64,000 nucleotides of DNA from a plasmid. This document shows, in pieces, positions 786 to 54,899 of this stretch. The notes beneath the pieces were generated by a model. That model was not told the DNA's origin and ran no database searches. It saw only the letters and a list, made by a program, of their open reading frames with translations. The translations under genes were made by a program, and so were the position numbers. The DNA is taken from the sequence record NZ_CP035506.1; one strand, 5' to 3'. Each line of letters starts with the position of its first letter. The stretch's first letter is position 1.

Positions 786-979
786 GCTCAGGACCTGAAA
801 AGATCCGTGGGGCCGGGTGCGCTCTCACAACCATGTGAATTTTCTGTACCATTCGCGGCCGGGTCATGGTTTTGCTTCGGTTTCCGCATGTGCAGCCTTA
901 TGTTATACAGGGACATACTTCCGGCGAATATGCCGGGCGCCCTGGGCTATCCCCGGCCACATTTGACTAGAGGATTTCC

Positions 980-2584
980 ATGACGGCCGCGAACGAGAAT
1001 TCCCGCTCCTCCCTGGCGGCTGCGCTTCCCTCGGTGAACGCCCCCGGTTTCATGTGGTTCATTCTGCTTCTGGCCGGGTCGATCCCGATCTTCTGGATCG
1101 GCTTCGTCTCGTTGGCGAAGGCCTGGTCCACGCCGGAATACAGCCATGGGCCGCTCATTCCGCTGATCTCGCTCTACCTCTTCCTGCGGGAGCTGCGGCA
1201 GATGCCTCCGCCCGCGGCCGAGGTGCGGGACCGCTGGCCGGGGCTCCTCGTCATTCTGCTGGGCCTCGTGGTTGCGCTGTTCGGCAACCTCACCCGCATT
1301 CCCGACATCGTCACCTATGCGATGATCATCTGGGTGGGCGGTGTGGTCCTCACCGTCTTCGGCTGGGAGCGGGGCAAGCATCATCAGCTTCCTGTCCTGC
1401 ACCTGATCTTCATGCTGCCGCTGCCGCAGTTCCTCTACTGGCACCTGACGATCTTCCTGCAGGGGATCTCGTCGGAGATCGGCGTGTGGTTCGTGCGCCT
1501 TGCCGGTGTGCCGGTCTATCTCGAAGGCAATGTGATCGACCTCGGGGTCTACAAGCTGCAGGTGGCGGAAGCCTGTTCGGGCCTGCGCTACCTGTTCCCG
1601 ATCCTGAGCTTCACCTATCTCTTCGCCATCCTCTATCGCGGCCCCTTCTGGCACAAGGCTGTGCTGATGCTGTCGGCCGTGCCGCTCACCGTGCTGATGA
1701 ACTCCTTCCGCATCGGGGTGATCGGGGTGCTGGTGAACTCCTATGGTATCGAGCATGCCGAAGGGTTCCTGCACTTCTTCGAAGGCTGGGTGATCTTCAT
1801 CGCCTGTATCGGCATCCTGTTCCTGATGGCGATGGGCCTGCAACGGCTGACGCGGAACCCGCTGCCGCTGGCGGAGGCGATCGACCTCGATACCCGCGGC
1901 ATGGCGCCGCTCATGGGGCGCATCCTGTCGATCCGCCCCTCGAAGGCGCTGGCGGCGGGGGCACTGCTGACGCTTGCCCTGTCGGCGGGCTGGGCGCTGC
2001 ATGGCGGGCCGCAGGCCCAGCAGATGGACCGGGAGCCTTTCGCGCTCTTCCCCCGGCAGTTCGGGGAATGGTCGGGCGCGGCCTCCGGTCTCGACCCGGA
2101 GATCGAGCGGGTGCTGGCCGCGACCGATTACATGAACGCCGCCTATACCGCACCGGGCGAGAAGGACTATGTGCATTTCTTCTCGGCCTATTACGAGAAG
2201 CAGACGGAAGGCGCCGGCATCCACTCGCCGGAAGTCTGTCTCCCGGTCGGGGGCTGGGAGATCTTCACCTTCCAGCCGCACGAGGTGAGCTTCCCGGGAA
2301 CGCCCTACGGTACCTTCACCGTGAACCGGGCGGTAATCCAGAAAGGGTTGTCCAAACAGCTCGTCTATTACTGGTTCGAGCAGCGCGGCAAGCGGATGAC
2401 CAACGATTATCTCGCCAAGGCCAGCGTCGTCTGGGACAGCCTGACCCGCGGCCGTACGGACGGGGCGCTGGTGCGCTATGTCACCCCGATCGGCACGAAC
2501 GAGAGCGAGGCCGACGCCGATGCCCGCATTCAGCGGCTGATGGCGAAAAGCCTGAACGTCCTGCCCCGCTACATTCCGTTCTGA
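980..2584 (+). CDS. Exosortase (EpsH/Xrt family, 8-TM core) with a fused C-terminal EpsI-like domain
   Basis: 534 aa. The N-terminal half is polytopic membrane protein with exosortase-like segments ([33 protein letters not shown]). A C-terminal soluble domain of about 200 aa is typical of EpsI fusions. A GAGGA RBS lies 6 nt upstream of the ATG. Confidence 0.8.
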
Positions 2585-2630: not shown

Positions 2631-2895
2631 CGTTGCAGCATGTCGGGCGCAGCGAATCCCCCTTGTTCGGACACAACTTTCCAAAACGAAAGTATTCAAC
2701 AGTTCACCTGCAAGCAGGTGGATGAAAGAGAATTTTCAATCCTAAGACGAAGATGATTGCCTCTCCCATTTCGCGCCTCACGATAAAAGTTATTAAAAAT
2801 AACACCTTTACGGCGAGCGCATCGGGCTATTCCAGCGAACAAGTTCAAGAAATTCCGATCTTTTGTGCCATATCGGGGACAAAGGCGCTCTCTTA

Positions 2896-3180
2896 GGGTC
2901 AGGACTCTTTCTCGGGTCATAGCCAGAACATGACGGTTGCTGCGAGAGCGATGGCGGAAAGGAAGACCTTGGGGCACCTGTCGTAGCGGGTTGCGACGCG
3001 GCGCCAGTCCTTCAATCGCCCGAACATGATCTCAATCCTGTTGCGGCGTCTGTAGCGGCGCTTGTCATACTTGATGGGTATGCCGCGCGATTTCCGGCCG
3101 GGGATGCAGGGTTTTATCCCCTTGTCCTTCAACGCTTCTCTGAACCAGTCGGCATCATAGCCGCGGTCCGCCAGCAGCCA
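2896..3180 (-). mobile_element. IS5-family (IS427-group) element, distal part of a copy split by a Tn3-family insertion
   Basis: Identical to the 3' end of the intact copy at 32040..32890, with terminal GGGTCAGGAC IR and a flanking TA. The OrfB C-terminal fragment is at 2917..3180. Confidence 0.8.
2917..3180 (-). pseudogene. IS5-family transposase OrfB, C-terminal fragment ([18 protein letters not shown]...), separated from its N-terminal part by the Tn3-family insertion
   Basis: The 71-aa ORF is identical to the C-terminus of OrfB at 32238..32870. Confidence 0.8.
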
Positions 3181-3218
3181 GGGGGCTGATGCCGGAGGGG
3201 GCAGGATCCTACGTTAAG
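3181..3218. repeat. Tn3-family terminal inverted repeat (left)
   Basis: GGGGGCTGATGCCGGAGGGGGCAGGATCCTACGTTAAG, inverted match at 6847..6884. Confidence 0.8.
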
Positions 3219-6099
3219 CCCTTTTCGGCCACTTGTATTCGCCAGTGAGCAGGACATGGGCCCAACCGAGGGGCGAGATGTGCGCCAGAAGGTTCGGCGA
3301 ACAGTCCAGGCCTTCGCGGCGGCGGCTGGCGACGGCCTGGCCGAGATGCTTGGTGTTCCAGTAGATGACGATCGCGGCAAGAAGGTTCAGCCCGGCCATG
3401 CGGAAGTGCTGGGCTTCGGAGGTGCGGTCCCTGATCTCGCCCTGGCGGCCGATGCGGAGAGCGTTCTTCAGCGCGTGGTGGGCTTCGCCCTTGTTCAGGC
3501 CGATCTGGGCGCGGCGCTGCATGCCGGCATCAAGCAGCCAGTCGATGATGAAGAGCGTCCGTTCGACCCGTCCGATTTCCCGCAAGGCGACCGCCAGTTC
3601 ATGTTGCCTCGGGTAGGACGCGAACTTCCGCAGGAGTTGGCTCGGCGGGATGGCTCCTGACGCCATGGTCGCCACGCTGCGCAGGATATCGGGCCAGTTC
3701 GCGGCGATGAGGGACTGCCTGATCTTGCCGCCGATCAGCCCTTTCAGCTCTTTCGGGCAGGCGGCCGGATCGAAGAGGTAGAGGCGCTTGGATGGCAGGT
3801 CGCGGATGCGGGGGATGAACTGGAAGCCCAGCAGGGCGGTGACGGCGAAGACGTGGTCGGTGAAGCCGCCAGTATCGGCATATTGCTCCCGGATCTTCTG
3901 CCCGGCGCTGGTCATCAGCAGGCCATCGAGGATGTAGGGCGCTTCGTTCACGGTAGCCGGGATGGTCTGTGTGGCGAAGGGACCGAACTGGTCGGAGACA
4001 TGGGTGTAGGCTTTCAGCCCGGGCTCATGGCCGTACTTGGCGTTGATCAGATTCATCGCCTCGCCCTGGCGTGTCGTCGGGAAGAACTGCCCGTCGCTCG
4101 ATGCGGTCTGTCCGGCGCCCCAGAACTGCGCCATCGGCAGTGCCGACTGCCCGTCGATCACCATGGCCAGGGCGCGGGCCATCGCCTCGCTTTCGACATG
4201 CCAGCGCGACAGGCGGGAAAGCTGGAAGAAGTCGTGCGTGTTCGTGGCCCCGGCCATCTTGCTGAGGCCGAGATTCAGCCCCTCGGCAAGCAACACGTTC
4301 AGCAGGCCGATCCGGTCCCTGCACGGCGCGCCGGTGCGCAGATGCGTAAAGGCCTCGGTGAAGCCAACCTCCGCATCCACTTCGAGCAGGAGATCGGTGA
4401 CCCTGACTTCCGGCAGGCGGCCATAGAGGTCGAGCACCAAGGCGTCGGCTTCCTCGGGAACCGCCGCAGCCAGCCGGTCGATTTTCAAGGTGCCGTCCTC
4501 GATGGAGCCTCCCGGCATGGTCCCGGCCCTAGCCGCACGCGCCAGGCGATGCAGGGCGTCAGCCATTCGGGCTTTGCGGTCGGCCAGCCAGGTTTCCGGC
4601 TCGAACGGCATGGCCAGCCTCGGCGTGGCGCGGGCGACGTCGACCGGGACCAGCGCTTCCTTCAGGTCGCCATACCTGCGCGAATGCGCCAGCCAGATAT
4701 CACCGGAACGGAAGGCTTCGCGCAGATGGAACAGGACCGCGACCTCCCATATCCGGTGCTCATCTTCGCCATCCAGGTGGCGGTGCCACTTCGAGGCGCG
4801 GCGCAGAAAGGTCAGCGGCCGGACGTCTGGTGTCGCCGTGCCCGCGATGACCGCGCTTGCCGCCAGCAGCGGCTCCGCCACGGGCGCGGCACAGATGTCG
4901 AGTACCCGCAGCATGCGCGGCGCATAACGCCGGAAGCGATGATATCCGTGACCGACATGCGCCAGCGGATCAGCGGCAAACGTGTCGGTCAGTTGAGCGG
5001 CCGTGGCGACAAGCCCCTTGAGGGATATCCAGCCGCCGGCATTGCCGACGGCCTCTTCGAGAGAGGCCCGATCCTCATGCGCTTCCAGGAGCGCCGCTCC
5101 CAATGTCCTGAAGGATTGCAGGGTGTCCTTCAGCGCCGATCTGGCATCGTCCATCCGGGCGTCACATCGTGACTTCGCCTCGCGCCAGGTCTTGCCCACG
5201 ATGCGGTCATGGGTCTCGACGACAGCGTCAGCAATGGCGCAGCGCCATTCCAGCGCGCAGACCGCAAGGATGGCGAGGCGGCGGTCACCCGAGATATCCC
5301 TCAGATCGCCTGCGAAGTATCGCTCTCCCTGCCGACGAAGGCGGGCAACGCGGTGTGGCGGCACATCCGCCAGAATGCCCCGGTCCAGCGCCAGCGCGCG
5401 CAGGTATTCCAGCCGGTCCAGAAGGCGGTTCATGTCGGCCGAATTCTGCCCGGTTTCGAACTGGCGCAGCCAGACGAACCGCGTGACCGAGCCGCCCGCA
5501 TCTTCGGTCAGGAGGGCATCGAGACGTGCTCGCATGGCATCGTCCAGCCGGCCACCGATCCGGGCGTCGATCCGGCGCTCGGCCGCGACAAGCGCCTCCG
5601 CGCAAAGCCGCTCGATGACCGTGATCCCCGGGAAGATGGTCTGGGTTGCCCGGCACTGCTCGACGAAGCGCCGTGCCAGATCCTCGTTCGACCGGGCGGC
5701 TTCGGCGGCATCCTCAAGCCATATTTTCAGGTCACGTGCCCCACGGCCCGCGAACATCTTGTAGCCATAGATCTCGCGCAAGGCGGCCAGGTGCTCATGC
5801 CGGGTCTCTTCCCGGGTCGCATACCCGGCCAGATCGTCAGGCCTCATCCCGAGCTGCGCTGCCAGAAAGCGCGTGACCGCCAGCGGAATGACCTCGCCCG
5901 GCGCCAGCAGCCGCCCCGGATACCGAAGCGCGCAGAGCTGCAGGGCGAAACCGAAGCGGTTGTGCGGACGACGACGGGCGCGGACGATCTCCAGATCGTC
6001 GTCTGCCAGCGTGTAGTGGCGCAGCATCGACGCGTCATCGGTCGGCAGGTCGAACAATGCCGCCCTTTGCCGGGCGGTCAGGATGCTGCGTCTTGGCAT
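3214..6099 (-). CDS. tnpA: Tn3-family transposase TnpA
   Basis: 961 aa. Tn3-family transposase length and composition. The stop lies within the terminal IR, as in Tn3-family elements. Confidence 0.85.
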   Translation of the reverse strand: MPRRSILTARQRAALFDLPTDDASMLRHYTLADDDLEIVRARRRPHNRFGFALQLCALRYPGRLLAPGEVIPLAVTRFLAAQLGMRPDDLAGYATREETRHEHLAALREIYGYKMFAGRGARDLKIWLEDAAEAARSNEDLARRFVEQCRATQTIFPGITVIERLCAEALVAAERRIDARIGGRLDDAMRARLDALLTEDAGGSVTRFVWLRQFETGQNSADMNRLLDRLEYLRALALDRGILADVPPHRVARLRRQGERYFAGDLRDISGDRRLAILAVCALEWRCAIADAVVETHDRIVGKTWREAKSRCDARMDDARSALKDTLQSFRTLGAALLEAHEDRASLEEAVGNAGGWISLKGLVATAAQLTDTFAADPLAHVGHGYHRFRRYAPRMLRVLDICAAPVAEPLLAASAVIAGTATPDVRPLTFLRRASKWHRHLDGEDEHRIWEVAVLFHLREAFRSGDIWLAHSRRYGDLKEALVPVDVARATPRLAMPFEPETWLADRKARMADALHRLARAARAGTMPGGSIEDGTLKIDRLAAAVPEEADALVLDLYGRLPEVRVTDLLLEVDAEVGFTEAFTHLRTGAPCRDRIGLLNVLLAEGLNLGLSKMAGATNTHDFFQLSRLSRWHVESEAMARALAMVIDGQSALPMAQFWGAGQTASSDGQFFPTTRQGEAMNLINAKYGHEPGLKAYTHVSDQFGPFATQTIPATVNEAPYILDGLLMTSAGQKIREQYADTGGFTDHVFAVTALLGFQFIPRIRDLPSKRLYLFDPAACPKELKGLIGGKIRQSLIAANWPDILRSVATMASGAIPPSQLLRKFASYPRQHELAVALREIGRVERTLFIIDWLLDAGMQRRAQIGLNKGEAHHALKNALRIGRQGEIRDRTSEAQHFRMAGLNLLAAIVIYWNTKHLGQAVASRRREGLDCSPNLLAHISPLGWAHVLLTGEYKWPKRA

Positions 6100-6264
6100 G
6101 GCGATCTTTCAGGAAATCGTGATGGACGACCGTCCGTAAGGGGATCGGTGAGCGGACATGTGTCGAGAGGGTTGGGAGCGGTAAGGAAACCGCACTCCAT
6201 CCTATCTCGTATAGATGGTACGATTTGATTCGCACATGCCGCCCCTTATCCGTACACTCGCTAC
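6100..6264. promoter_or_regulatory. Probable res site and divergent promoter region between tnpA and tnpR
   Basis: Intergenic position between the divergently transcribed transposase and serine recombinase, as in Tn3-family elements. Individual subsites were not resolved. Confidence 0.4.
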
Positions 6265-6852
6265 ATGACCGTGACCAAAATTGGCTATGCCCGCTGCTCC
6301 ACCGACCGTCAGGACCTGACAGCGCAACGTGCTGCCCTTGCAGAGCTTGGGGTCACCGTAGACCGCATCTACACGGACCATGGCCTGACCGGCACGAACC
6401 GCGCCCGCCCCGGTCTCGACCAAGCGCTTGCTGCTGTGCGAGAAGGCGACGTGCTGGTCGTGCCGAAACTCGATCGCCTTGCGCGCTCGGTCCCGGACGC
6501 ACGGGCCATCGCGGATCAGTTGGAAAAGAAGGGCGTCAAGCTTGCCCTCGGCGCATCGGTCTACGATCCGACCGACCCGATGGGAAAGATGTTCTTCAAC
6601 ATCCTCGCCACCTTCGCCGAGTTCGAGGCCGACCTCATCCGCATGCGTACCCGCGAAGGTATGGCCATCGCCCGAGCCAGGGGCAAGCTTCGGGGAAAGC
6701 AGCCGAAACTCTCGGAAAAACAACAAAAAGAACTGAGCCGGATGCACGCCTCCGGCGAATATTCCATCAGCGATCTCGCTGAGCTCTTTGCCGTCTCAAG
6801 ACCGACCGTCTACAGGACGCTGCAGCGAAATCCGGCCAAAACTCAGCCTTAG
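6265..6852 (+). CDS. tnpR: Serine recombinase / resolvase TnpR
   Basis: 195 aa. N-terminal catalytic motif YARCSTDRQDL with Ser. C-terminal HTH (SISDLAELFAVSRPTVYR). Confidence 0.85.
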   Translation: MTVTKIGYARCSTDRQDLTAQRAALAELGVTVDRIYTDHGLTGTNRARPGLDQALAAVREGDVLVVPKLDRLARSVPDARAIADQLEKKGVKLALGASVYDPTDPMGKMFFNILATFAEFEADLIRMRTREGMAIARARGKLRGKQPKLSEKQQKELSRMHASGEYSISDLAELFAVSRPTVYRTLQRNPAKTQP

Positions 6853-6884
6853 CGTAGGATTCTGCCCCCTCCGGCATCAGACCC
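6847..6884. repeat. Tn3-family terminal inverted repeat (right)
   Basis: Reverse complement GGGGTCTGATGCCGGAGGGGGCAGAATCCTACGCTAAG. Confidence 0.8.
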
Positions 6885-7259
6885 CAGCCAGTCCGCCTTT
6901 GGCAAGCTGCCCAGAAGTGCTGCGGCACCCGTGTAGTCACTGACCTGACCTGCGGTCACGAAGAAGCGGATTGGCCGGCCATCAGCATCGGTGACGGCGT
7001 GCAACTTGGTGTTCATGCCGCCCTTGGTTCGGCCGATCAATCGGCCCCTCTGATCGTTGGCTCCCCCTTTTTCGCTCGCAGGCTGGTCGCCGTGCGATGC
7101 GCCTTGAGATAGGTCGCGTCGATCATCACCGTCTCCGGAACTGCCGACTCTGCCGCCAGGCCGAGCATCATCCGGGCGAAGACACCCCTGTCGCTCCACC
7201 GCTTCCAACGGTTGTAGAGCGTCTTCGACGGGCCATACTCCTTGGGAGCGTCGCGCCAT
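6885..7259 (-). pseudogene. IS5-family transposase OrfB, N-terminal part truncated by the Tn3-family insertion (ends ...SLPKADWL then out-of-IS sequence)
   Basis: The ORF 6849..7259 matches the OrfB N-terminus and then diverges at the Tn3 IR. Confidence 0.75.
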
Positions 7260-7396
7260 CGCAAACCATTGCGATTAATGAAGATAATGCCGCTGAGAAC
7301 GCGCCGGTCATCAACACGCGGCTTGCCATGGCTCTTGGGAAAGAAGGGCTCCAGGCGCGACATCTGCGCCTCCGTCAGCCAAAAGAGGTTGCTCAT
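7037..7396 (-). CDS. IS5-family transposase OrfA
   Basis: The 119-aa ORF is identical to OrfA in the second copy (32101..32460). Confidence 0.8.
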   Translation of the reverse strand: MSNLFWLTEAQMSRLEPFFPKSHGKPRVDDRRVLSGIIFINRNGLRWRDAPKEYGPSKTLYNRWKRWSDRGVFARMMLGLAAESAVPETVMIDATYLKAHRTATSLRAKKGEPTIRGAD

Positions 7397-7606
7397 TCAT
7401 CGGTCTCCTTGCGGAGCCTGAATCATGCTGAAAGCGCAAGATCAATGGGTCCTGACCCTAAGCGCAAGCAGCTGAGTTTTATTAATAAACTAGGAAATAT
7501 TAAAAAAACCACTGTCACGCCGCATCGCAACATGTTAATAATTGACATAAGCGTGATGAACTCGGCTCCGGCCCCTGAGCCGATTGGCAGAATTATGGAG
7601 AGAAAC

Positions 7607-9030: not shown

Positions 9031-10062
9031 TTGACGAAACATGTATTGGTCACTGGCGGAGCAGGGTATATCGGCTCCCATGCCTGCAAGGCATTACAGC
9101 GCGCCGGCTATGTGCCCGTCACCTACGATAGCCTGATTACCGGCTGGCAGCAGGCGGTGCGCTTTGGCCCGTTCGAGCAGGGCGACCTCGCCGACAGGGC
9201 GCGGCTGGATGAGGTCTTTGCCAGGTGGAGGCCGGTCGCGGTGATGCATTTCGCTGCCCTCTCCCAGGTGGGAGAGGCGATGCGGGAGCCGGGGAAATAC
9301 TGGCGCGGCAATGTCGCTGCCTCCCTCACCCTGCTGGAGGCGGCAGTGGCGGCGGGCTGCCTCGACGTGGTGTTCTCCTCCACCTGCGCGACCTATGGCG
9401 ATCAGGACGGCGTGGTACTGACGGAGGAGACCCCGCAGGCGCCGATCAACGCCTATGGCGCCTCCAAGCGCGCGATCGAGGACATGTTGCGCGACTTCGG
9501 CGCGGCCTACGGACTGCGCTCAGTGATCTTCCGCTACTTCAACGTGGCGGGAGCCGATCCGGAGGCGGAGGTGGGCGAGTTCCACGACCCCGAGACGCAT
9601 CTGATCCCGCTGATCCTTGAGGCGATCTCCGGCAGGCGCCCGGCGCTCACCGTCTTCGGCACCGATTACCCGACGCGGGACGGCACCTGCATCCGCGACT
9701 ATGTGCATGTCTCGGACCTGGTGGATGCCCATGTGCTCGGCGTGAAGGCGCTGGAAGCGGGACGGGTGGCGGATGGCGGGGTGGAGGTCTTCTGCCTCGG
9801 CTCCGGCAGCGGTTTCTCCGTCCGCGAGGTGATAGAGGAGGCCCGCCGCATCACCAATCGCGAGGTGCCGGTGGTCTTGGGGGAGCGGCGCGCGGGCGAT
9901 GCCGTGGCGCTGGTCTGCGGCAGCGAGAAGGCGGGGCGCGAACTGGGCTGGACCCCGGCCCGCTCCGACCTCGGCACCATGATCGAGGATGCCTGGCGGT
10001 CCTATCGCACCGTGGGCTGGGACAGGACGGTGGCGGGTGGCCCGGCGCTGGAGAATGCCTGA
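9031..10062 (+). CDS. galE: UDP-glucose 4-epimerase
   Basis: Rossmann motif VLVTGGAGYIGSH, SxnYxxxK signature (YGASK), and GalE-like motifs (DGTCIRDYVHV). The start codon is uncertain: TTG at 9031, or ATG at 8950 giving an N-terminal extension. Confidence 0.8.
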   Translation: MTKHVLVTGGAGYIGSHACKALQRAGYVPVTYDSLITGWQQAVRFGPFEQGDLADRARLDEVFARWRPVAVMHFAALSQVGEAMREPGKYWRGNVAASLTLLEAAVAAGCLDVVFSSTCATYGDQDGVVLTEETPQAPINAYGASKRAIEDMLRDFGAAYGLRSVIFRYFNVAGADPEAEVGEFHDPETHLIPLILEAISGRRPALTVFGTDYPTRDGTCIRDYVHVSDLVDAHVLGVKALEAGRVADGGVEVFCLGSGSGFSVREVIEEARRITNREVPVVLGERRAGDAVALVCGSEKAGRELGWTPARSDLGTMIEDAWRSYRTVGWDRTVAGGPALENA

Positions 10063-10348
10063 GCCGGGCGCGTGATGCTGCTGCGCCCCTCCGGCACGAC
10101 CCTGCCCGGAGACGGCGAAAGAGCGACGGGCCCCGCCACGGGGCATGGCCCCTCCCGTCCGGTCGGTGCACCCGGTTCCATGCCGCCAAGCAGCCTCTCC
10201 TGCCAGCAGAGCTCCGCCGAAGTGCGGGCAGGGGATGTCACAATCGCGATTGGCTGTGCCGGCGCGGGTTTTCTTGGCGGGATGACGTGTATATTCACCT
10301 CCCGAGGGGCGGGACACCCGCGGGATTCGGAACAATAAAAGGAACGAC

Positions 10349-11425
10349 ATGCGCCAGCATGCCATCTTCTTCTGCCTCCCGCTGATCCTGACTGCCTGCA
10401 CGGATGGTTTCGTCTATTTCCCCGTCGATGAAAGCGGCCAGGAGCGTGCGGCGCAGGAGGAGAATGTCGATATCATCCGTCTGACCCCGGATAATATCGC
10501 AAGCTTCGCTCAGCCCACCAAGGGCCATGTCGCCACCAGCATGCCGCGGGGCGGGCGCTGGAACTATCTTGTCGGGCCGGGCGACATTCTTGACATCATC
10601 GTCTTTGATCATCCGGAGCTGACGCTCCCTGCCGGGCCGCAGCGGGCGGCGGAGGATTCCGGTTTTCGCGTGCAGGCGGACGGCAGTTTCTTCTACCCCT
10701 TCATCGGCCAGGTCCGGGCCGAGGGCCGCCCGCTCGAGCAGATCCGCGAGGAGGTGACGCGGCGGCTGGCCGAATACGTCCCGGAGCCGCAGCTCGAGGT
10801 GCGTGTCGCCGCCTTCAACTCCCAGAGCGTCGTCGTCTCGGGCGAGGTGAAGATGCCGCAGCGGCTGGAGATGACGACCAGTCCCCGCACGCTGCTGGAA
10901 GCGATCAGCGAGGCGGGCGGTTTCACCGAGAATGCCGACATGCGCCGTGTCCGCGTCCAGCGTGGCAGCCAGTTCTATGACGTGGATGTGGAGGGCTATC
11001 TCTCCGCCGGAATGGCCGCCAACAACCCGATGCTCCGGTCGGGGGATGTGGTCTCCGTGCTGCGCAAACGCGCGCAGGAGGCCTATCTGATGGGCGAGAT
11101 ATCGGAGGCGGGGCCGGTCGACCTGTCGCTCGACACCGTCTCTCTCACCCAGGCGCTGGCGCTGCAGAAGGGTGTGCGCTCCACCCGGTCCGATGCGCGC
11201 GGCGTCTTTGTCTTCCGCAACGTGCGGGGGCGCATGACCGTCTTCCAACTCGAGACGAGTTCCCCCACCGGGCTGCTGCTCGGCACGCGCTTCGTGCTGG
11301 AGCCGGGCGATGTCGTCTATGTCACGCGCAACCCGCTGCAACGCTGGAACGACACGATCTCCAAACTGCTGCCGACGGTGCAGGCGACGAATGTGGTCGC
11401 GGCGACCGACAATGCGCTGAACTGA
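10349..11425 (+). CDS. wza: Polysaccharide export outer-membrane lipoprotein (Wza/GumB/ExoF family)
   Basis: Lipobox LILTAC. Poly_export-like region (PGDILDI.VF...). The repeated soluble ligand-binding beta-grasp (SLBB) domain pattern is typical of Wza. Confidence 0.8.
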   Translation: MRQHAIFFCLPLILTACTDGFVYFPVDESGQERAAQEENVDIIRLTPDNIASFAQPTKGHVATSMPRGGRWNYLVGPGDILDIIVFDHPELTLPAGPQRAAEDSGFRVQADGSFFYPFIGQVRAEGRPLEQIREEVTRRLAEYVPEPQLEVRVAAFNSQSVVVSGEVKMPQRLEMTTSPRTLLEAISEAGGFTENADMRRVRVQRGSQFYDVDVEGYLSAGMAANNPMLRSGDVVSVLRKRAQEAYLMGEISEAGPVDLSLDTVSLTQALALQKGVRSTRSDARGVFVFRNVRGRMTVFQLETSSPTGLLLGTRFVLEPGDVVYVTRNPLQRWNDTISKLLPTVQATNVVAATDNALN

Positions 11426-11439: not shown

Positions 11440-11916
11440 ATGATTTCGAATGTGATGGTCGTCTGCGTCGGCAATATCTGCCGTTCCCCGCTGGGAGAGC
11501 GCGTGCTGCAGGCGGGTCTGCCGGGGGTCAGAGTGACTTCGGCGGGGATCGGGGCGCTGGTCGGCCATGCCGCGGATCCGCTGGCCGCGGAGGTGGCAGC
11601 GGAGCATGGCATCTCGCTCGAAGGCCATGTGGCGCGGCAGTTCACCGCCGAACTGGGCGGCACGCAGGATCTGATCCTGGTCATGGAGCCGGGGCACAAG
11701 GCGGAAATCACCCGCCTGGCCCCCGCGCTGTCGGGCCGCGTGATGCTGTTCGATCAATGGACCGGCGCCAAGGGGATCGCCGACCCTTATCAGCGGTCGC
11801 GGGAATTCCACGAGGCCGTGCATGGGGAAATCGCGACGGCGGCGCAGGGCTGGATCGCCCGGCTCGGCCCCCGGCCTAGTTCCCGCCCAGGTTCAGGTTC
11901 CGGAGCCGGGGCATGA
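11440..11916 (+). CDS. wzb: Low-molecular-weight protein-tyrosine phosphatase (Wzb-like)
   Basis: P-loop motif VVCVGNICRSP and DP motif. The stop overlaps the wzc start (ATGA). Confidence 0.85.
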   Translation: MISNVMVVCVGNICRSPLGERVLQAGLPGVRVTSAGIGALVGHAADPLAAEVAAEHGISLEGHVARQFTAELGGTQDLILVMEPGHKAEITRLAPALSGRVMLFDQWTGAKGIADPYQRSREFHEAVHGEIATAAQGWIARLGPRPSSRPGSGSGAGA

Positions 11917-14087
11917 GCCCGAAGCCCCCGCGCGAGGCGGAAGCGAAGGAAGTCGATCTCGCCGCGCTGGCCGAGGAGCTCTGGGCCGCCAAGGGCAAGG
12001 TCGCTGGATTTACCGCGGCCGGGCTGCTCGCGGGGGTTCTCTACATCTTCCTCACCGCCCCCACCTATGAGGCGGATGCGCTGATCCAGCTGGAACCGAA
12101 GACCGGCAACCTCGCCGTGCCCTCGGGGCTTTCCGATCTGATGGGCGGTGGTCAGACCCAGGCCACGACCGAACGGGAACTGATTATGTCGCGCCTGGTG
12201 CTGAACCAGGCGGTGGCGGATGTGCATCTGGAATGGACAGCCCGGCCCCGGCAGTTCCCGGTGATCGGCTATGCGCTGCGGTCCCGCGCGCTGCCCTTCA
12301 AGGGAATGAGCTTTCTGCGGCCCTATGCCCAGGGGGGGAGCGGATCCGCCTCGATCTGCTTGCCGTGCCGCCGCACTGGACGGGAGAAACCTTCACCCTC
12401 ACCAAGGGCGACGGGGATACCTTCCGCGTGACCACCCCCGACGGCCGCCTGTTCGAGGGCCGCGTGGGGGAAGTCCTGCAGGATACCGATATCGGCTTCG
12501 CCCTCCGTGTGGGGGAATTGGAAGGCCAGCCGGGACGGCAGTTCGAGATCGCCCACCGCGAGACGCAGGATGTCATCGAAGGGCTTCGCCGGTCCCTGTC
12601 GGTTGCCGAAAAGACCCGCGATTCCGGCATCCTGGAGTTGTCCTTCACCTCCCGCGACCGGGTGGAGGCGCAGCGCACGCTGGCCGCCATCGCGCAGGCC
12701 TATGTCCGCCAGAACGTGGAGCGCTCTGCCGCGCAGGCAGAAAACAGCCTTGGCTTCATCCAGCAGCAGATCCCCAAGGCCCGGCAGGACATGCTGGATG
12801 CACAGGACCGGCTGAACACCTATCGCGAGTCGCAGCGTTCCGTCGATATCCAGTTCGAGACACAGAACCTGCTGACCCAGATCGGCACGCTGGAGACCGA
12901 ACTTCGTGAACTCCGCTCGCAGGAGGACGAGGTCGCCGATCTCTATACCAAGAACCACCCGCGCTACCGCCAGCTTCTGGCGCAGCGGGAGCGGCTGGAG
13001 GATCAGCTCAACAAGCTGCGGGGGAGATCGGCACCCTGCCCGACACGCAGCGGGAGATCCTGAACTACACCCATGACGTGGAAATGGCGCAGGAGATCTA
13101 TACCGAGCTTCTGACCCGCGCGCAGGAAGTGGATGTCATGCGCGCCTCCACCGTCGGCAATGTGCGGATCGTCGATCCGGCAGAGACCCAGATCCGTCCC
13201 GTGGCGCCCCGCAAGGCGCGCGTTCTCGCTCTTGCCCTGTTGCTGGGCGGTATGCTGGGGGCGGGCTATGTGCTGCTGCGGAACTGGCTGCGGAAGGGTA
13301 TCCAGAGCGCTTCCGACCTGGAGGACATGGGTCTCACGGTCTTTGCCACCATCAACAAGAGCCCGGATGCCGAAAGGCCGGAAGGCGGGCGCGGCGGGCG
13401 CGTTCCGCTGCTGGCGGCAACTAAGCCCACCGACCTTGCCGTGGAGGGGCTGCGTTCGCTCCGCACGGGGCTGCATTTCGGGATGCTGGACGCCCCCTCC
13501 CGCACGCTGGCCATCACTTCCACCGCGCCGGGTGCGGGCAAGAGCTTCCTGTCGGCCAACTTCGCCGTCGTCTCCGCCCAGGCGGGACAGTCGGTCTGCC
13601 TGATCGACGCGGACATGCGGCGCGGGCGCCTGCGGCGGATGTTCGACGTGCCCCGCGATGCACCGGGCTTTGCCGATATCCTGACCGGACAGGCGCGGCT
13701 TGAGGATGTGCTGGTGCCAACCGGGGTGCAGGGGCTGGTTTTCCTGCCTGCAGGCAAGTTCCCCCCGAACCCGGCGGAATTGCTGCTCCGCCCGACGCTC
13801 CCGGCGCTCATCCGCGAGCTGGACCAGCGGTTCGATCTGTCGATCTTCGACTGCCCCCGGTTCTGGCGGTCACCGATCCGGTCATCATCGCCAAGGCAGC
13901 GGGGGCGAGCCTGCTCGTCGCCCGCTTCGACGAGACGCCGGAGGGCGAGATCCGTGCGGCTCAGGCCGCGATGGAGGCGGCAGGCACCGGCTTCAAGGGC
14001 GCGGTTTTCAATGCCTATGACCACCGCAAGGCCAAATCGGCGCAGAGCTATTCCTATCGCTATGAATACAAGGCGAAGGAGGAGTAA
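11913..14087 (+). pseudogene. wzc: Wzc/ExoP-family polysaccharide co-polymerase and BY-kinase. The reading frame is interrupted by three -1 frameshifts, each in a G or C homopolymer (possible sequencing errors).
   Basis: Four consecutive ORF segments (11913.., 12233.., 13078.., ~13860..14087) together encode the TM1 and periplasmic coiled-coil Wzz domain, TM2, Walker A (STAPGAGKS), and a Tyr-rich C-terminal tail (YSYRYEYKAKEE). The shifts are at the G7 run 12332..12338, the G5 run 13020..13024 and the C5 run 13854..13858. Confidence 0.8.
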
Positions 14088-18074: not shown

Positions 18075-18172
18075 GGAAATGCCGGGCTCAAAATACCAGA
18101 CTCAAAATACCGGGCTCCCACGAATACTGGGCTCCCACGAAATACCGGCCTCCGCGAAATACCGGGCTCACA
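18075..18172. repeat. Six degenerate tandem repeats of about 16 bp (AAATACCGGGCTCCCACG) in a large intergenic region
   Basis: Direct reading of the sequence gaaatgccgggctca / aaataccagactca / aaataccgggctcccacg / aatactgggctcccacg / aaataccggcctccgcg / aaataccgggctcacag. Confidence 0.7.
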
Positions 18173-18752
18173 GGCGGGCCGTGGCCATGCGGGCCTCCGG
18201 GATATTCTGTCGGGGGAGACCGGGGGGAGAGATCCGTGAGGGGAGATCGGGGAGAGAGGCCATCGGTTTCGCCCTCCCGGTCGGGTCGGTATGGGGATCC
18301 GGGAGGGAGAGGCAAGGAAGGCCCGTGGTCAGGCCCCTGCCTGCCCCTGCCCGGGTACCCCCTGCCTGCTGCTTCTCCCTACCCCCCGTTTCGCTTCCTG
18401 CCCAGCCTGCCCCCGCCCACTCTCCACCTGCCCACTCTCCTCCCTCCGGCCTCCTCCCGCCCGGCCTCCTCCTGCACCGCCTCGTCCTCCCCGGTGCAAT
18501 CGACACCAGGCCACCCGCCATGGCAAAGCCGGTCACCGGTATCGTGAGGGCGCCGCACTCCATCCCCTTCCGTGACATGAGGCCATTGGCGATTGAGGGT
18601 CGGGAGCCGGTCGAGGCGAAGCGGCCCCTGCCGCCTGCTTCCGCGCCAGGCGCAGCAATCCGCCTGCCCGCCCCTTCCCTTCCCTTTCCATGACGGCCCG
18701 CCCGTGCTAGGCGGCAGAACCAACCGAAGGCCCAGGATACCCGAGCCACCGC

Positions 18753-21831: not shown

Positions 21832-23040
21832 ATGAGCCATCCCGTATCTCCGCCCGAGGCCGCACTCCCGGATACCCGCAACCCCGCAGGGGAAGCTCCG
21901 CGGGGTGTGGAGCCGGGTGTAAAGCCGGCCGGTTCCCTGCCGCGGCTCGTCTTCCTGTGGGAGAATTTCGGCCCCATGCATGCCGACCGCTGCGACGCCG
22001 TGGCGGCGGAGGTCCGCGGAGAGGCGGAGGTGGTGGGCCTCGAACTCTATGGGCAGAGCGACACCTATGACTGGGTGCCGGAGACGGGCGAGGGGTTCCG
22101 CAAGGTGACGCTCCATCCCGCGTCCCGCCCGACGGGGCTGGCGCTCCTGCGCTCTCTCGCGGCTTTCCGGCGGCGGGAGGGGCGGGCCATCTGGTTCATG
22201 TGCCACTACAGCTGGATGCCGGTCTTTGCCTTTGCCTGCCTTCTGCGGCTGCGGGGCGACCGGGTCTATACCATGGGCTGCTCGAAGTTTGACGACATGC
22301 CGCGCAGGCCCTTCCGCGAATGGGTGAAATCGTGGTTCTTGAAACCCTATCAGGGGGCGATCGGATCGGGTTTCAGGACGCGGGACTATTTCCGGTTTCT
22401 CGGAATCCCGGAGAAGCGGATCACGGGGGTATATAATACCGTCTCTCTGGACCGCATCCGCCGGATGTCGGAGGGCCAGCCAGCCCCGGAAGGTATCCCG
22501 TTCGGGGAACGGCATTTCACCATCGTGGCCCGGCTCGTGCCGAAGAAGAACCTCTTCGTGGCGCTGGAGGCCTATGCGCTCTATGCCGCTGCCGATCCCG
22601 CGCCGCGCCCGCTCCATCTCTGCGGCTCCGGCCCGCTGGAGGCAGAACTGCGCGCCCGGGCCGAGGCGCTCGGCATTGCGGAGCGCGTGGTATTCCACGG
22701 CTTCTTGCAGACCGATGCCATCGCGCGATTGCTCACCTCCACCCTGGCCCTCGTGCTGACAAGTACCGAGGAGCAGTTCGGAAACGTGGTGATCGAGGCG
22801 CAGGCGATGGGTGTGCCCTCCATCCTCTCCGATATCTGCGGCGCGCGGGACAGCCTGGTGCGCACCGGCGTGAACGGCTTCGTGGTCGAGCCGGACAATC
22901 CGGAGGGCTTCGCCTTCTTCATGCGTCTCCTGGCCACGGACCGCGATCTGTGGGAACGCCAGTGTCGCGGCGCCGCCGACTACGCCCCCCGCGGCGACGT
23001 GCCCGCCTTCGCCGCCGGCGTGCGGGAACTGATGAAGTGA
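21832..23040 (+). CDS. Glycosyltransferase, GT-B fold (GT4-like)
   Basis: C-terminal GT1 region (EEQFGNVVIEAQAMGVPSILSD). Confidence 0.65.
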   Translation: MSHPVSPPEAALPDTRNPAGEAPRGVEPGVKPAGSLPRLVFLWENFGPMHADRCDAVAAEVRGEAEVVGLELYGQSDTYDWVPETGEGFRKVTLHPASRPTGLALLRSLAAFRRREGRAIWFMCHYSWMPVFAFACLLRLRGDRVYTMGCSKFDDMPRRPFREWVKSWFLKPYQGAIGSGFRTRDYFRFLGIPEKRITGVYNTVSLDRIRRMSEGQPAPEGIPFGERHFTIVARLVPKKNLFVALEAYALYAAADPAPRPLHLCGSGPLEAELRARAEALGIAERVVFHGFLQTDAIARLLTSTLALVLTSTEEQFGNVVIEAQAMGVPSILSDICGARDSLVRTGVNGFVVEPDNPEGFAFFMRLLATDRDLWERQCRGAADYAPRGDVPAFAAGVRELMK

Positions 23041-26425: not shown

Positions 26426-28824
26426 TCAGGCGAAGAAGGGATAGTTGCAGACCGCATCGCCGACCAGAAGATGCATGCCTTCCAGAAGAAACTCCTCATC
26501 GCGGGACGTTTCGAACACGAGGCCGATGTGGAAGGAGGACACCTCATGCGGAACGAAGCATGTCAGCCGGGTGATCCCGAGACCGGTGTCGCTCCGGGTA
26601 ATGCCCTGCTCGGGAGCGGCGGTCGCCGCCGCCTGGGCAGAGGCGGGATCCGCATTCGCCCAGTAGGCGGCGCGCACCAGCCGTCCCTGTCCTGAACCAT
26701 TCCACGCGCCGATGGCGGCCATCGTCACATAGCCTGCGTCCAGGGGCGCAAGGATCTGGAGCGGCACTTCCAGCGTCACCGCCTGACTGGCCGAACCACC
26801 GGCGAGATGCAGAAGGCTTGTCTGCTCGCCGGTCAGGCCGGATACCCGGGGGGAAAGGCGCAGGGTTCTGGAAAGGGATGTGAGACGCTCGGGCGGGATG
26901 CCGTTTCGCCAGGGGGACAGCCTGCCGGTGCGAAGCTGGCCCTGCTCCACGAGAGCTGTATCGAAAGCGGGATTTCGCCCGATGTAGTTGCCGCGAAAGA
27001 GCGCGACCTGCCAGGGGTTCGTCACGGCACGGAACCCGGCCGCCTGGCCCAGGATATTCAGGTTGCGCAGGGTAACCAGGCCGTTCCTGTTATCCACCAG
27101 ATGACGGCAGGTTTCATTGCCGATGAAGAACTTTGTCCCCTCGACGGCAAGCGGGGTGCCGTTCAGGACATAGGGGGCGCCTTTGTCTATCGTTGCGCGA
27201 AAGACCACGGGATAGTCGATATGTTCGATCCATCCTCCCAGCCACTGGACGGTGGAGAAGCTCCTCGCCTCCACGACCGCGCAGCTGAACTGTTCGGCCG
27301 AACAGTTCTCGAATGTCCAGCTCGCCCCGCAGCGCAATATATAGGCCGCCGGGAAATCCTTATCCGCGGCGCAGTGGTAGTGAGTGGTGTTCGTGACCTT
27401 GTTCAGGTTGACGGGGCAGCCGGTCGAGTCGGACCATGCCTCGAAAACCCTGAACGCCTGCCCGCCTCCCTGCCTTCCCCCGAAGAAGCCGAAGCGGCAG
27501 TCGTCGATCGACCAGTAGATCGGCACGCAGCGGAAGAGGAGCTGGAATTCGTTCGATATCTCCAGACGACGGATGCGGAAGCCGCCGGTGTATTTCTTCT
27601 GCGCGGGGCTGTCGTAGAAGATCACGCCGGGGGCGGCTGCCTGTGCGAAGAAGCCCTCCAGAACCGCCGCATAGATCGGTTTTTCATCCCGGTCACGGAA
27701 GATGGCCCCCCCTTTTACCGTGCAGACGAGGCCGTAGCGCCCCGCCTGAAGCTCTCCCCCGGGCCTTCGATGCGCATGCCGGTGACGGGCTGGATCTCGT
27801 TGACCGCATAGGTATGCGGCCCGAGGCGCACCTTGCCGCGGGCGATGGCGCGTGTCAGGGCCGCGCTGTCATCCGTCCGCCCGTCGCCCGCTGCCCCGAA
27901 GGCGTCGAGATCCACGTAGCCATCCCGGTCCGCCTCCACCGCCAGCGCCGTTCCCCCCGCTGTGACCAGGTCGGGGGCGGCCGTCCGGTCTGCGGCCAAG
28001 GTGACATAGCCGAAGCTCCCGGCCCGCAGCCTGTCGCCCGGATCGAACGGATGCCGCGCCGCGCGGAGGCTGGCCACATCGGGGTAATGCGCCCCCGAGA
28101 GGAGCCGCCAGCGGCTGCCATCCTCATGGCGCGTGGCGCCCGCCGGGTCGCGCCGGTAAACCAGTTCCAGCCCGTCCCCCATGACCCGGGCGAGGCGGGT
28201 TGCGGGATTGAGGGGCGCGGAGAGGAACTCCGCCTTGCCGGGCCAGGGCATGGGCGTGGCGATCAGGCCCGCCTGCTCCAGCATCGCGGCAGCGGTCTCC
28301 GCCGTCTCCACCGTGGTCCGGCCCCAGTCGAGCCCGCCCGTCTCCGTCCCCACCAGCGGGCGCCCCGGCTGCGGATGGAGCGGCGCCACCGGCATGTCGA
28401 GCCTGAGCGCCGCATCCAGCCTCCGCGTCTGGTCCTGCAAGGCCCGCACGATGAGGTCGAGCTGTGCCTCCAGCCCGTGCCGCCCCCCGCTCCGCCCCCA
28501 GCCCTGCGCAAGCTGGCTCTGCCGGAAGGGCAGAAGCAGACCCCCTGCCAGCCGCTCCGCCGTTTCGGGCGCGAGCAAAAGCTCCCCCGTCGTAGAGGAA
28601 GCGGGCGGGATCAGCCGGAACTCCGCCTCCGACAGTTCGATCCGTGTATCGTGATGCAGGACCAGCACCCCGATATCCCCCGCCTCATAGGGATGCGGGA
28701 TGGCATAGGGGCCGGGACCGGAGATGCCCTGCACCGGCGAGGGGACGAAGTTCGGAACGGCCACGACGCGCCTCCTGGGGGCAGACCCTGGCTGGAGCCT
28801 TCCAGTCTTGGTGGTTTGGGTCAA
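26426..28824 (-). pseudogene. Large secreted protein with a pectate-lyase-fold right-handed beta-helix domain (candidate polysaccharide depolymerase or C5-epimerase); one -1 frameshift in a G5 run
   Basis: The two minus-strand ORFs 27715..28824 and 26426..27625 are contiguous if one G is added at the homopolymer near 27756..27760 (plus strand C5). Pectate_lyase_3-like motif DLDAFGAAGDGRTDDSAALTRAI. Confidence 0.6.
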
Positions 28825-28926: not shown

Positions 28927-30021
28927 TCAGGAGGTGGAAGTGGCCTGTGGCCCGGAGCTTTCCCGCACGGGGCTCCGCAAGCAAAACTCCTTCACGCGGG
29001 CATAGGTTGCGGCCAGTTCGTGCCGCGGTGCGTTGAAGAGTTTCTGCTGGTCGGCGGAGGCGAGTTCCGCACCGCGCAGGCGATCCCGCGCGAAGGTGGA
29101 TTTCGCCCGCAGCCGGTAGAGCAGGGTCTTGTAGCCGGCAAAGCGCCGGGCTTCCGATTGTATCCGTGCCCATTCCCGCGGATTGTCGGACCTGTCCTTC
29201 GCCAGCACATAGGCGCGGTTGAGGATATGCATGACCCCCATCGCCCGCCCCGCGTCCCGCCGTTCGGGGGCCTTGTGGTGATAGATGAACGCCTGCGTCG
29301 CAGCCACGACGCAAAAATTGTCGAGCGTCCGCAGGGAGGCGTCGATATCCTCGAACAGCGCGTAACGGCCCAGTCCTTCATCGAACTGCAGGGCACGGAT
29401 CACCTCTGTCCGGAAGGACATGCGGAAGCCGGTCATGTAGGGAACATGGATCGCCTGCACCTCTTCCAGCCAGTCCGGCTGCCGCAGGCGCGCAAGTTTC
29501 TGCGCGGCAAGGGTCAGGAAAGGGTCGGGGATCAGCCGGTCCTCCATCCGCCGCCGGAGGGGCAGAAGGGCAAGGGACATCGCATCGCTCCGCCGGCGGC
29601 GGTAGCCGGGGCGGTCGCTGGCCCCGGCGATGCCGGCGCTTTCATGAGGGGCATGGGCTTCCGCCGCGCAGACCCCCCCGATCAAACCCTCGGTATCCCG
29701 CTCATAGACCCGCATGATGTGATCCATCGCATCGGGATAGAGAAGGGAATCGTCATCGGGAAACAGCACGACTTCGCCGGTGACATGGCGCAGGCCGAGG
29801 TTGCGCTGCGCCGCCGCGCCCGGTCCGCTGCGGATGTAGCGCACAGGCAAGGGAGCCGCGGCCGCGAACTCTTCGACAAGGCTGCGGACGGCCGCTTCAT
29901 CATCACTTGAATCAACGACAATGATGTCCTGAGGCGGACGGGTCTGGCCGAGCAGCATCGGTATGCTGAGCTTCAACGCTTCCAGCCGGTTCCGGGTCGC
30001 AATCACGCAGGAGTAGTTCAT
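28927..30021 (-). CDS. Glycosyltransferase family 2
   Basis: SCVIATRNR...IIVVDSSDD...FPDDDS motifs. Paralog of 58782..59831. Confidence 0.7.
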   Translation of the reverse strand: MNYSCVIATRNRLEALKLSIPMLLGQTRPPQDIIVVDSSDDEAAVRSLVEEFAAAAPLPVRYIRSGPGAAAQRNLGLRHVTGEVVLFPDDDSLLYPDAMDHIMRVYERDTEGLIGGVCAAEAHAPHESAGIAGASDRPGYRRRRSDAMSLALLPLRRRMEDRLIPDPFLTLAAQKLARLRQPDWLEEVQAIHVPYMTGFRMSFRTEVIRALQFDEGLGRYALFEDIDASLRTLDNFCVVAATQAFIYHHKAPERRDAGRAMGVMHILNRAYVLAKDRSDNPREWARIQSEARRFAGYKTLLYRLRAKSTFARDRLRGAELASADQQKLFNAPRHELAATYARVKEFCLRSPVRESSGPQATSTS

Positions 30022-31968: not shown

Positions 31969-32039
31969 GATGGAGAACTCCCGAAATTGGGTAGACGTAC
32001 TGAAAACCTCGTTAAGTTTGCACCCGCTTATCCCTTTAG

Positions 32040-32890
32040 GGTCAGGACCCATTGATCTTGCGCTTTCAGCATGATTCAGGCTCCGCAAGGAGACCGATGA
32101 ATGAGCAACCTCTTTTGGCTGACGGAGGCGCAGATGTCGCGCCTGGAGCCCTTCTTTCCCAAGAGCCATGGCAAGCCGCGTGTTGATGACCGGCGCGTTC
32201 TCAGCGGCATTATCTTCATTAATCGCAATGGTTTGCGATGGCGCGACGCTCCCAAGGAGTATGGCCCGTCGAAGACGCTCTACAACCGTTGGAAGCGGTG
32301 GAGCGACAGGGGTGTCTTCGCCCGGATGATGCTCGGCCTGGCGGCAGAGTCGGCAGTTCCGGAGACGGTGATGATCGACGCGACCTATCTCAAGGCGCAT
32401 CGCACGGCGACCAGCCTGCGAGCGAAAAAGGGGGAGCCAACGATCAGAGGGGCCGATTGATCGGCCGAACCAAGGGCGGCATGAACACCAAGTTGCACGC
32501 CGTCACCGATGCTGATGGCCGGCCAATCCGCTTCTTCGTGACCGCAGGTCAGGTCAGTGACTACACGGGTGCCGCAGCACTTCTGGGCAGCTTGCCAAAG
32601 GCGGACTGGCTGCTGGCGGACCGCGGCTATGATGCCGACTGGTTCAGAGAAGCGTTGAAGGACAAGGGGATAAAACCCTGCATCCCCGGCCGGAAATCGC
32701 GCGGCATACCCATCAAGTATGACAAGCGCCGCTACAGACGCCGCAACAGGATTGAGATCATGTTCGGGCGATTGAAGGACTGGCGCCGCGTCGCAACCCG
32801 CTACGACAGGTGCCCCAAGGTCTTCCTTTCCGCCATCGCTCTCGCAGCAACCGTCATGTTCTGGCTATGACCCGAGAAAGAGTCCTGACC
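32040..32890 (+). mobile_element. IS5-family (IS427-group) insertion sequence, intact copy
   Basis: Imperfect terminal IRs GGGTCAGGAC(C/T)C at both ends, flanking TA dinucleotides. orfA/orfB arranged for a -1 programmed frameshift. Confidence 0.85.
32101..32870 (+). CDS. IS5-family transposase OrfAB (orfA 32101..32460, orfB 32238..32870; -1 programmed frameshift at A-AAA-AGG)
   Basis: OrfA carries the HTH. OrfB carries the DDE region (..[10 protein letters not shown]...). A slippery AAAAAGG motif lies in the overlap. Confidence 0.8.
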
Positions 32891-33350
32891 CTAGACAAGA
32901 TGCTGCGATCATCGCTCCGATATCCGGCCGGATCTGCGGTCAGCTTGTACCCGGGGCGAGGGCCGAGTGTCTCCGTTGTGACATGACGTTTGTTCAGGCC
33001 CGCACGTCGCACGAGCGGGTATTTTATGCCGCCTGTGTCCAGGGACCATGCCGTTTGCGCGGCATATAACGCCTTAAATGAACTCTGGCATTGACCGCCC
33101 CGGAGCGCCGACGCCTCCGCAGAGCAATATCAATTGGCTATACGGGGACGTTACATCTTGACCGGGGCATGTCTTGTTGAAGGAGAAAGTCGTCATCCCG
33201 TTCTGATGATTCATTATGATGATACCATAAGCAATACTATTGATTTTGGCGTAAATAATCGCAATTCATTGAAATCGACCCTGCAGACCCATTTCCAATA
33301 CAAAAGATTTCGTAAACTTCATAATATGTTATAGAGATCGGAGTTGCTCA

Positions 33351-46627: not shown

Positions 46628-49098
<2,471 letters not shown>

Positions 49099-49155
49099 AA
49101 TCTCATCCAGATTGACGCGCGCGTCTCTTCCAGATTGTCGCGCTATAGTTAGCTT

Positions 49156-50260: not shown

Positions 50261-50289
50261 CGGATGCCCTCTTCGACAGATAGCTGTGG

Positions 50290-54881: not shown

Positions 54882-54899
54882 GAAAGAACCCCGTGGAAG

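Follow-up and report, generated by a model that had tools for sequence, protein, structure and literature searches.

Does plasmid pOT1-6 of Haematobacter massiliensis OT1 carry a wzc gene that mutation has broken in three places, or do the breaks belong to the deposited sequence and not to the bacterium? The question arises from a stretch of 64,000 nucleotides (hereafter the window) which forms part of this plasmid (CP035506), itself 118,868 nt in size (PMC6498234, Table 1); the fragment ORFs considered here are exact matches to plasmid-labelled OT1 proteins (HmaOT1_...), and map exactly onto the window. According to a preliminary description, three one-base lesions in G/C runs interrupt wzc and a fourth of the same type splits a second gene, a pattern that was ascribed to systematic sequencing error or, were the lesions real, to loss of wzc function or homopolymer slippage acting as a phase-variation switch. 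The OT1 genome was sequenced on one PacBio RSII SMRT cell with C4 chemistry, and assembled with HGAP v2.3 and Quiver at 233x coverage; the assembly received no short-read polishing, and the PRJNA517385 deposit comprises PacBio data only (PMC6498234). On comparison with related sequences, the four frameshifts are very probably consensus errors of this long-read-only assembly, rather than pseudogenes or a phase switch.

The affected genes lie in a 24.6-kb polysaccharide locus bordered by two inverted copies of one insertion sequence (Table 1). The left copy is interrupted by a Tn3-family element of ~3.7 kb (DDE_Tnp_Tn3, 449 bits), and short-read contigs break at the right copy. Downstream of wza, wzb and wzc are genes encoding an initiating GT4, a GT1, an EpsG (Wzy-like) protein, a Polysacc_synt Wzx-type flippase, several GT2s and a pyruvyl transferase, and on this predicted gene content the locus is a standard Wzx/Wzy-dependent EPS locus.

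Table 1. Features of the polysaccharide locus and the four lesions, in window coordinates.
Feature	Coordinates	Strand	Remarks
Inverted second copy of the IS at 32036..32893	2894..7461		Left locus border; interrupted at 3181/6885
wza, outer-membrane polysaccharide export protein	10349..11425	+	Intact; Poly_export, SLBB_2, Wza_C
wzb, low-molecular-weight phosphotyrosine phosphatase	11440..11916	+	Intact; PF01451 LMWPc; 4-nt overlap with wzc start
wzc, polysaccharide co-polymerase / BY tyrosine autokinase	11913..14087	+	Three frames in the record; 725 aa once repaired
Lesion 1	12332-12338	+	G7 in record, ccaGGGGGGGagc; G8 in H2240 and metagenome contigs; AAG7 in CCUG 47968
Lesion 2	13020-13024	+	G5 in record, tgcGGGGGaga; G6 in all relatives
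Lesion 3	13854-13858	+	C5 in record, ctgCCCCCggt; C6 in all relatives
Hypothetical protein gene, possibly pectate-lyase-like beta-helix	26426..28764	-	779 aa once repaired; 349-aa and 399-aa ORFs in the record
Lesion 4	27756-27760	gene on -	C5 on + strand (tctCCCCCggg) = coding-strand G5; C6 in 11/11 relatives
IS5-type IS, ~858 nt	32036..32893		Right locus border; DDE_Tnp_1, inverted repeats

The interrupted genes and their repaired products

As deposited, the open frame of wzc steps from 0 to -1 to -2 and back to 0. The earlier claim that the gene is broken by three one-base lesions in G/C runs was confirmed in each respect, in that the runs lie at the positions given for them, the frame steps are present, and alignments with relatives of 99-100% identity place each one-base gap, including that of the fourth lesion, exactly in these runs. 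The record encodes wzc pieces of 172 aa (QBJ22822.1 / WP_131389047.1) and 211/232 aa, and the third fragment lacks both Walker B and the Tyr-rich tail. Adding one base to each run yields a 2178-nt ORF without a stop, encoding 725 aa, and the product matches WP_035713541.1, from other H. massiliensis isolates, at every residue. The proposal that such a repair restores a full-length Wzc with Walker A and a Tyr-rich tail is thus upheld by the identity between the repaired protein and a database protein.

The repaired Wzc matches the Pfam models Wzz (PF02706; 54.0 bits, cut-off 25.5), WZC_N (PF23607; 85.4 bits, cut-off 27) and GNVR (PF13807; 95.4 bits, cut-off 27.7), contains a P-loop domain, and passes the BY-kinase model TIGR01007 (146.8 vs 108.05). 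Its C-terminal kinase motifs are readable as Walker A (APGAGKS), A' (IDADMRRG, of the pattern DxDxR) and B (SIFDCPP, of the pattern hhhhDxPP), all of which align with E. coli Wzc; the third lesion falls within the Walker B codons D-C-P-P (GAC TGC CCC CCG), and this motif is present only once the C at that site is restored. The sequence ends in ...SAQSYSYRYEYKAKEE, with the tail YSYRYEY and 4 Tyr among its final 13 residues. The alignment with E. coli K30 Wzc (7NI2; 469 bits) runs the full length of the protein, over residues 11-724. With the E. coli K30 and K-12 proteins, which are PCP-2a BY-kinases (PDB 7NHR, 7NI2, 3LA6), the repaired Wzc shares the Wzz, WZC_N and GNVR periplasmic region, two TM segments, Walker A/A'/B and a C-terminal Tyr cluster, and the gene order wza-wzb-wzc is likewise common to the OT1 and E. 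coli loci. Unlike its E. coli counterparts, OT1 wzc is plasmid-borne in a Rhodobacterales (Paracoccaceae) host, adjoins an exosortase gene, and has an ORF that is interrupted in the record. The NCBIfam equivalog model for E. coli Wzc (NF008568) scored 570.4 bits against a curated cut-off of 1068, and on this sub-threshold score the repaired Wzc is an ordinary family member, and not an ortholog-level equivalog of E. coli Wzc.

For the second split gene, the earlier account stands as to the lesion, a G5 run on the coding strand (C5 on the plus strand), and needs amendment as to the gene: its span had been given as 26426..28824, and relatives start it at a GTG matching window position 28764. The label of beta-helix gene has as its sole basis a sub-threshold Pfam match (PF12708; 17.7 bits, cut-off 27), and a PDB sequence search with the 779-aa protein gave no match. 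The 399-aa fragment of this gene corresponds to QBJ22835.1; other fragment proteins from the two genes are QBJ22823.1 (HmaOT1_00265, plasmid), WP_423221701.1 and QBJ22836.1. Once repaired, the 779-aa protein has the same sequence as JGI protein P0011.

Independent sequences and the census of runs

In a scan of species-representative genomes, H. missouriensis carried the locus at ~90% identity, and Haematobacter genomosp. 1 H2240 and H. massiliensis CCUG 47968 at ~99%. Searching for exact copies of the Wzb and GT2 proteins brought up ~20 JGI/ENA/Logan metagenome contigs and three isolate assemblies (CCUG 47968, H2240 and GCA_002196955), with the exact Wzb protein present in 16 contigs. In all of these related sequences, more than 20 in number, the run is the longer one and the gene is intact. 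wzc is called as a 725-aa gene wherever it is fully covered, partly covered contigs are in frame throughout their extent, and the second gene is intact, at 779 aa, in 10/10 contigs from the GT2 look-up.

The most extensive comparison is provided by JGI contig Ga0121049_100158 (24.8 kb; L060 and L071), which spans window positions 7343-32138 with 2 mismatches and four one-base gaps, these being the four lesions and no others. No mismatch occurs in contig L072 (13,139 nt, 1 gap), in L064 or L067 (3 gaps each), or in the partially covering L063, L065, L066 and L068 (2 gaps each). The metagenome contigs end within the very IS copies that flank the OT1 locus, and these copies are absent from CCUG 47968; since the contigs share OT1's IS junctions, they represent an OT1-like clone that was sampled independently.

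At the first site, the in-frame reading is CAA GGG GGG GAG in CCUG 47968 and CAG GGG GGG GAG in H2240; in H. missouriensis, CAG GGC GGT GAA stands at this site and CGG GGC GAG at the second, and other genera have unrelated codons at the wzc run sites.

Counted in the reference state, G/C runs of at least 6 nt number 29 in the 24.6-kb locus, and four of these are one base shorter in the window; none of its 60 runs of length 5 differs. Each of the four changes removes one base from a G/C run whose true length is at least 6. We found no clear rule of sequence context separating the 4 changed from the 25 unchanged runs: three of the four changed runs consist of a G-run followed by AG, and the same context occurs at 8797 and 18222, where the runs are unchanged. 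Of the four long runs that wzc contains, three are changed, a clustering that is nominally significant (hypergeometric P=0.004, for a comparison chosen post hoc). The other ~39 kb of the window holds no changed run, and the difference between runs inside and outside the locus (4/29 vs 0/23) is not significant (Fisher P=0.12).

A GC3 frame plot of the whole 64 kb independently recovers the four frame switches, and the only other GC3 switch in the window is a two-ORF switch inside the IS copies, which probably belongs to the element itself. What looked like a further switch, at 60.1-61.0 kb, proved to be an ordinary overlapping pair of small glycosyltransferase genes, one Alg13-like (Glyco_tran_28_C) and the other a probable Alg14-like partner. 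Gene-by-gene tblastn across 31-46 kb, where the relatives available for 33-46 kb are only ~98% identical, revealed no truncated genes, and all orthologues were full length. A G6 run at 33527-33532, which is G7 in two isolates, was considered as a fifth error and set aside as natural polymorphism, given that JGI contig L089 also has G6. Window positions 49148-56262 align with L080 without any gap. The exact-protein look-up gave no match for the ORFs at 46628-48208 (IS21 IstA-like) or 58782-59885 (GT2), and 56-64 kb was checked by frame plot and ORF inspection, without an identical reference. By these means no further frameshifts were found in the 64 kb, so that the total stands at four, of which wzc has three.

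Sequencing error, mutation, switching and recoding

If the deposited sequence is at fault, then each lesion would be a one-base undercall in a G/C homopolymer with a true length of 6-8, and the other assemblies suggest that the real OT1 DNA most likely reads G8, G6, C6 and C6. These longer runs would encode an intact, ordinary Wza-Wzb-Wzc export module, together with an intact 779-aa protein. There is close precedent in the assembly of Streptomyces albus SM254 (73% GC), in which 205 indels remained after PacBio sequencing at 262x and Quiver polishing to QV>50, 'nearly all ... within G or C homopolymer regions' (PMC4832174). Like that of OT1, this is a high-GC, long-read-only, Quiver-polished assembly at >200x, with residual single-base indels in G/C runs and false frameshifted ORFs; and indels left in polished long-read assemblies are known to truncate predicted proteins (bioRxiv 10.1101/285049). 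The two cases differ in that the S. albus errors were demonstrated and corrected with Illumina data, whereas error in OT1 is inferred by comparison with other assemblies. They differ also in local density, at 4 per 25 kb in OT1 and a genome average of 1 per 35 kb in S. albus; at the latter rate ~1.8 errors would be expected per 64 kb, and the probability of at least four is 0.11. The earlier attribution to systematic homopolymer error is supported by the PacBio-RSII-only record, by lesions that are the only indels against otherwise identical contigs, and by relatives that all have the longer runs. We note that four errors in 24.8 kb, amounting to some six times the S. albus density at a nominal 233x coverage, count against an artefact. 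The clustering in wzc is not explained by uniform error, and could reflect a local dip in coverage or quality.

It is improbable, in our estimation, that the deletions are instead real, having arisen by replication slippage in G/C runs, perhaps in an MMR-deficient background or under relaxed selection, such that wzc was inactivated three times and the 779-aa gene once. G/C runs of at least 6 nt are genuine slippage hot spots, above all without MMR, and 96% of mutator indels were located in G:C runs, with a modal length of 6 bp (PMC4702332). All four lesions fall in one dispensable, IS-bracketed polysaccharide locus, with none in the rest of the window; the plasmid bears other signs of decay or IS activity, such as an IS21-like insert in a 388-aa gene; and the concentration in wzc (P=0.004) would be unexpected under uniform sequencing error. 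However, further mutations in wzc are neutral after a first frameshift, and therefore selection cannot explain three; such neutral later lesions should moreover bring substitutions with them, of which there are none across 14.6 kb (L060) or 13.1 kb (L072). Measured spectra run to at least 5 substitutions per indel. In mutation accumulation with wild-type P. aeruginosa (66% GC), 44 substitutions were recorded to 8 indels, one of the latter in a homopolymer, and in MMR-deficient lines 690 and 108, respectively; insertions in these lines outnumbered deletions 3.3-fold (PMC4702332). Under these spectra, which are from Pseudomonas and not Haematobacter, four deletions with 0-2 substitutions over ~25 kb have a probability of ~1e-3, or ~1e-6 when direction is counted, and one still well below 1% when the higher run density here is allowed for. 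None of the four alleles occurs in any other sample of the clone, and the lesion is exactly the residual error typical of the platform. The preliminary description's conditional case of a real wzc null allele is consequently disfavoured by its ratio of indels to substitutions. Were the lesions real after all, to which we give little credence, this skin isolate would have silenced its plasmid EPS export locus by repeated slippage, for example in a transient mutator episode, with the G8 run mutating first and possibly serving as a reversible switch; the locus would in that case no longer give OT1 any export of high-molecular-weight EPS.

The suggestion that homopolymer slippage switches wzc, and with it capsule or EPS export, with OT1 caught in the off state by slipped-strand mispairing in the G8/G7 tract and possibly at other runs, has in its favour that a G8 run placed within a gene for surface polysaccharide is how contingency loci are classically built, and that the first site varies between strains (AAG7 in CCUG 47968, AG8 in H2240). 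Yet both of these alleles are in frame, as are all other contigs and isolates everywhere, so that no independent sample offers an off-length allele; a switch needs one tract, and here three are off together, two of them with a length of just 6 nt; H. missouriensis and other genera lack such tracts; and the fourth lesion has an identical form in an unrelated gene. With contingency loci, such as the homopolymer switches discussed for P. aeruginosa mutators (PMC4702332), OT1 wzc shares a poly-G run in a surface-polysaccharide gene in which a one-base change abolishes the product; unlike them, its tracts are unconserved, show no length heterogeneity among samples and include several short ones that are off at once, and the variation is seen only in an error-prone assembly. 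As the runs are in frame elsewhere and the tracts unconserved, we regard them as by-products of GC-rich codon use, and not as maintained tracts. With no off-length allele elsewhere, and no such tracts in the sister species H. missouriensis, the phase-variation proposal was not sustained, and we rate a switch as very improbable. Expression of wzc in spite of the frameshifts, via programmed ribosomal frameshifting or transcriptional slippage at the runs, is scarcely credible. Each lesion does need a -1 shift, homopolymers can promote slippage, and the three shifts sum to -3, which returns the C-terminal Tyr tail to the starting frame. We know, however, of no precedent for three consecutive recoding events, and runs of G5 and C5 are too short for efficient slippage; the identical flanking DNA of relatives encodes the protein directly, with one extra base per site, and the data are explained without any conserved stimulatory element.

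Consequences for the record, and the wider plasmid

If sequencing error is indeed the cause, then the finding brings no new biology, and its main value is in data hygiene. The only complete Haematobacter genome that we found in a literature search is this long-read-only assembly, and at least five spurious fragment proteins from the two genes have entered GenBank/RefSeq/UniRef (QBJ22822.1, QBJ22823.1, WP_423221701.1, QBJ22835.1 and QBJ22836.1). Loss of EPS or capsule, pseudogene load or phase variation inferred from CP035506-CP035515 would thus mislead as to the biology of a skin-associated opportunist. Should the lesion density of the window apply genome-wide, then roughly 260 false frameshifts would be expected in the 4.2-Mb genome, and CP035506-CP035515 should therefore be polished before comparative use.

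Elsewhere on the plasmid, the 388-aa gene mentioned above is split by its IS21-like insert. In a copy of PLSDB from which the OT1 plasmids were absent, the wzc region found no match, and the RepA end matched replicons from other genera alone, with identities of no more than 78%. The window carries a RepA-type initiator at 62454-63542, in keeping with a plasmid origin.

Run-length and small indel differences from relatives

A further candidate for the kind of assembly artefact described for wzc lay in the CLC channel gene, in whose final codons the window carries a G6 run (33527-33532) and both CCUG 47968 and GCA_002196955 carry G7, such that the C-terminal residues of the channel differ. We rejected this run as a fifth error, because a JGI metagenome contig (L089, Ga0121049_100422) has G6 at the same position; a run length common to that contig and the window marks it as a natural polymorphism. 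In L089 itself the channel gene (9691-10475) is called as two pieces of 167 aa and 94 aa, and the contig departs from the window by one-base differences at 33802 and 34356, both in C runs. The split could stem either from a frameshift or from faulty assembly of L089, and leaves the window unaffected.

Small indels also distinguish the window from CCUG 47968 and H2240 at three places (see table), one of which, at 18.1-18.5 kb, is probably intergenic. All are present in metagenome contigs that are 100% identical to the window, and are thus genuine strain differences. Pieces (11913-13063 and 26426-28764) of the two broken genes have entered nr, RefSeq and UniRef as separate proteins. QBJ22822.1 / WP_131389047.1 is labelled 'Wzz/FepE/Etk N-terminal domain-containing protein'; the others (QBJ22823.1, WP_423221701.1, QBJ22835.1 and QBJ22836.1) are labelled hypothetical proteins.

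Features of the window discussed in this part
Feature	Position	Strand	Details
Exosortase gene	971-2584		EpsH + DUF3485; 537 aa
IS5-type element, two copies	2894-7461 and 32036-32893		DDE_Tnp_1; ~858 nt; inverted orientation
Insert interrupting left IS5-type copy	3182-6884		~3.7 kb
Tn3-family transposase	3214-6108	minus	964 aa; DDE_Tnp_Tn3 449 bits, DUF4158
In-frame insertion	10077-10080		3 nt
Several small indels	18104-18451		between ORFs
In-frame deletion	21875		15 nt; start of GT1 gene (21832-23040)
IS21-like element	46507-49147
IstA-like protein	46628-48208		526 aa; of IS21-like element
IstB	48205-49098		297 aa; of IS21-like element
Second polysaccharide gene cluster	49148-61024		same plasmid as EPS locus
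PEP-CTERM-like protein	61558-62064		168 aa; C-terminal PEP-CTERM-like sorting signal (VPLPAAGFLLLAGLGAAGIV...); PF07589 at threshold
Replication initiator protein A	62454-63542		PF10134, 332 bits

Mobile elements

The polysaccharide locus (7462-32035, 24.6 kb) lies wholly between two IS5-type copies that are 100% identical to each other, an arrangement that is composite-transposon-like; CCUG 47968 has neither copy. Metagenome contigs assembled from short reads end exactly at these copies. Several metagenomes contain the locus at 100% identity to OT1, whereas the DNA flanking it in the same JGI sample (L089) is only ~98% identical. The insert within the left copy carries the Tn3-family transposase gene.

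The IS21-like element is present in OT1 as an insertion relative to CCUG 47968 and contig L080, and splits a 388-aa gene, residues 1-20 of which are encoded at 46447-46506 and residues 19-388 at 49148-50257. This break is a structural disruption, as opposed to a single-base call.

Second polysaccharide cluster and neighbouring genes

The second cluster encodes MurA-like and MurB-like proteins, a Branch-type GT, GT2s, an epimerase, a UDP-glucose dehydrogenase and a flippase, together with a small glycosyltransferase pair, one member of which is Alg13-like (Glyco_tran_28_C) and its partner probably Alg14-like. Two GT2 genes are 71% identical to each other over 140 nt (29339-29478 vs 59161-59300).

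RepA shares ~77% DNA identity with RepA of Cereibacter sphaeroides 124-kb plasmids, in keeping with a plasmid origin of the window; the PLSDB copy searched held no Haematobacter plasmids. The exosortase gene adjoins the EPS locus, and the gene for the PEP-CTERM-like protein is close to the second cluster.
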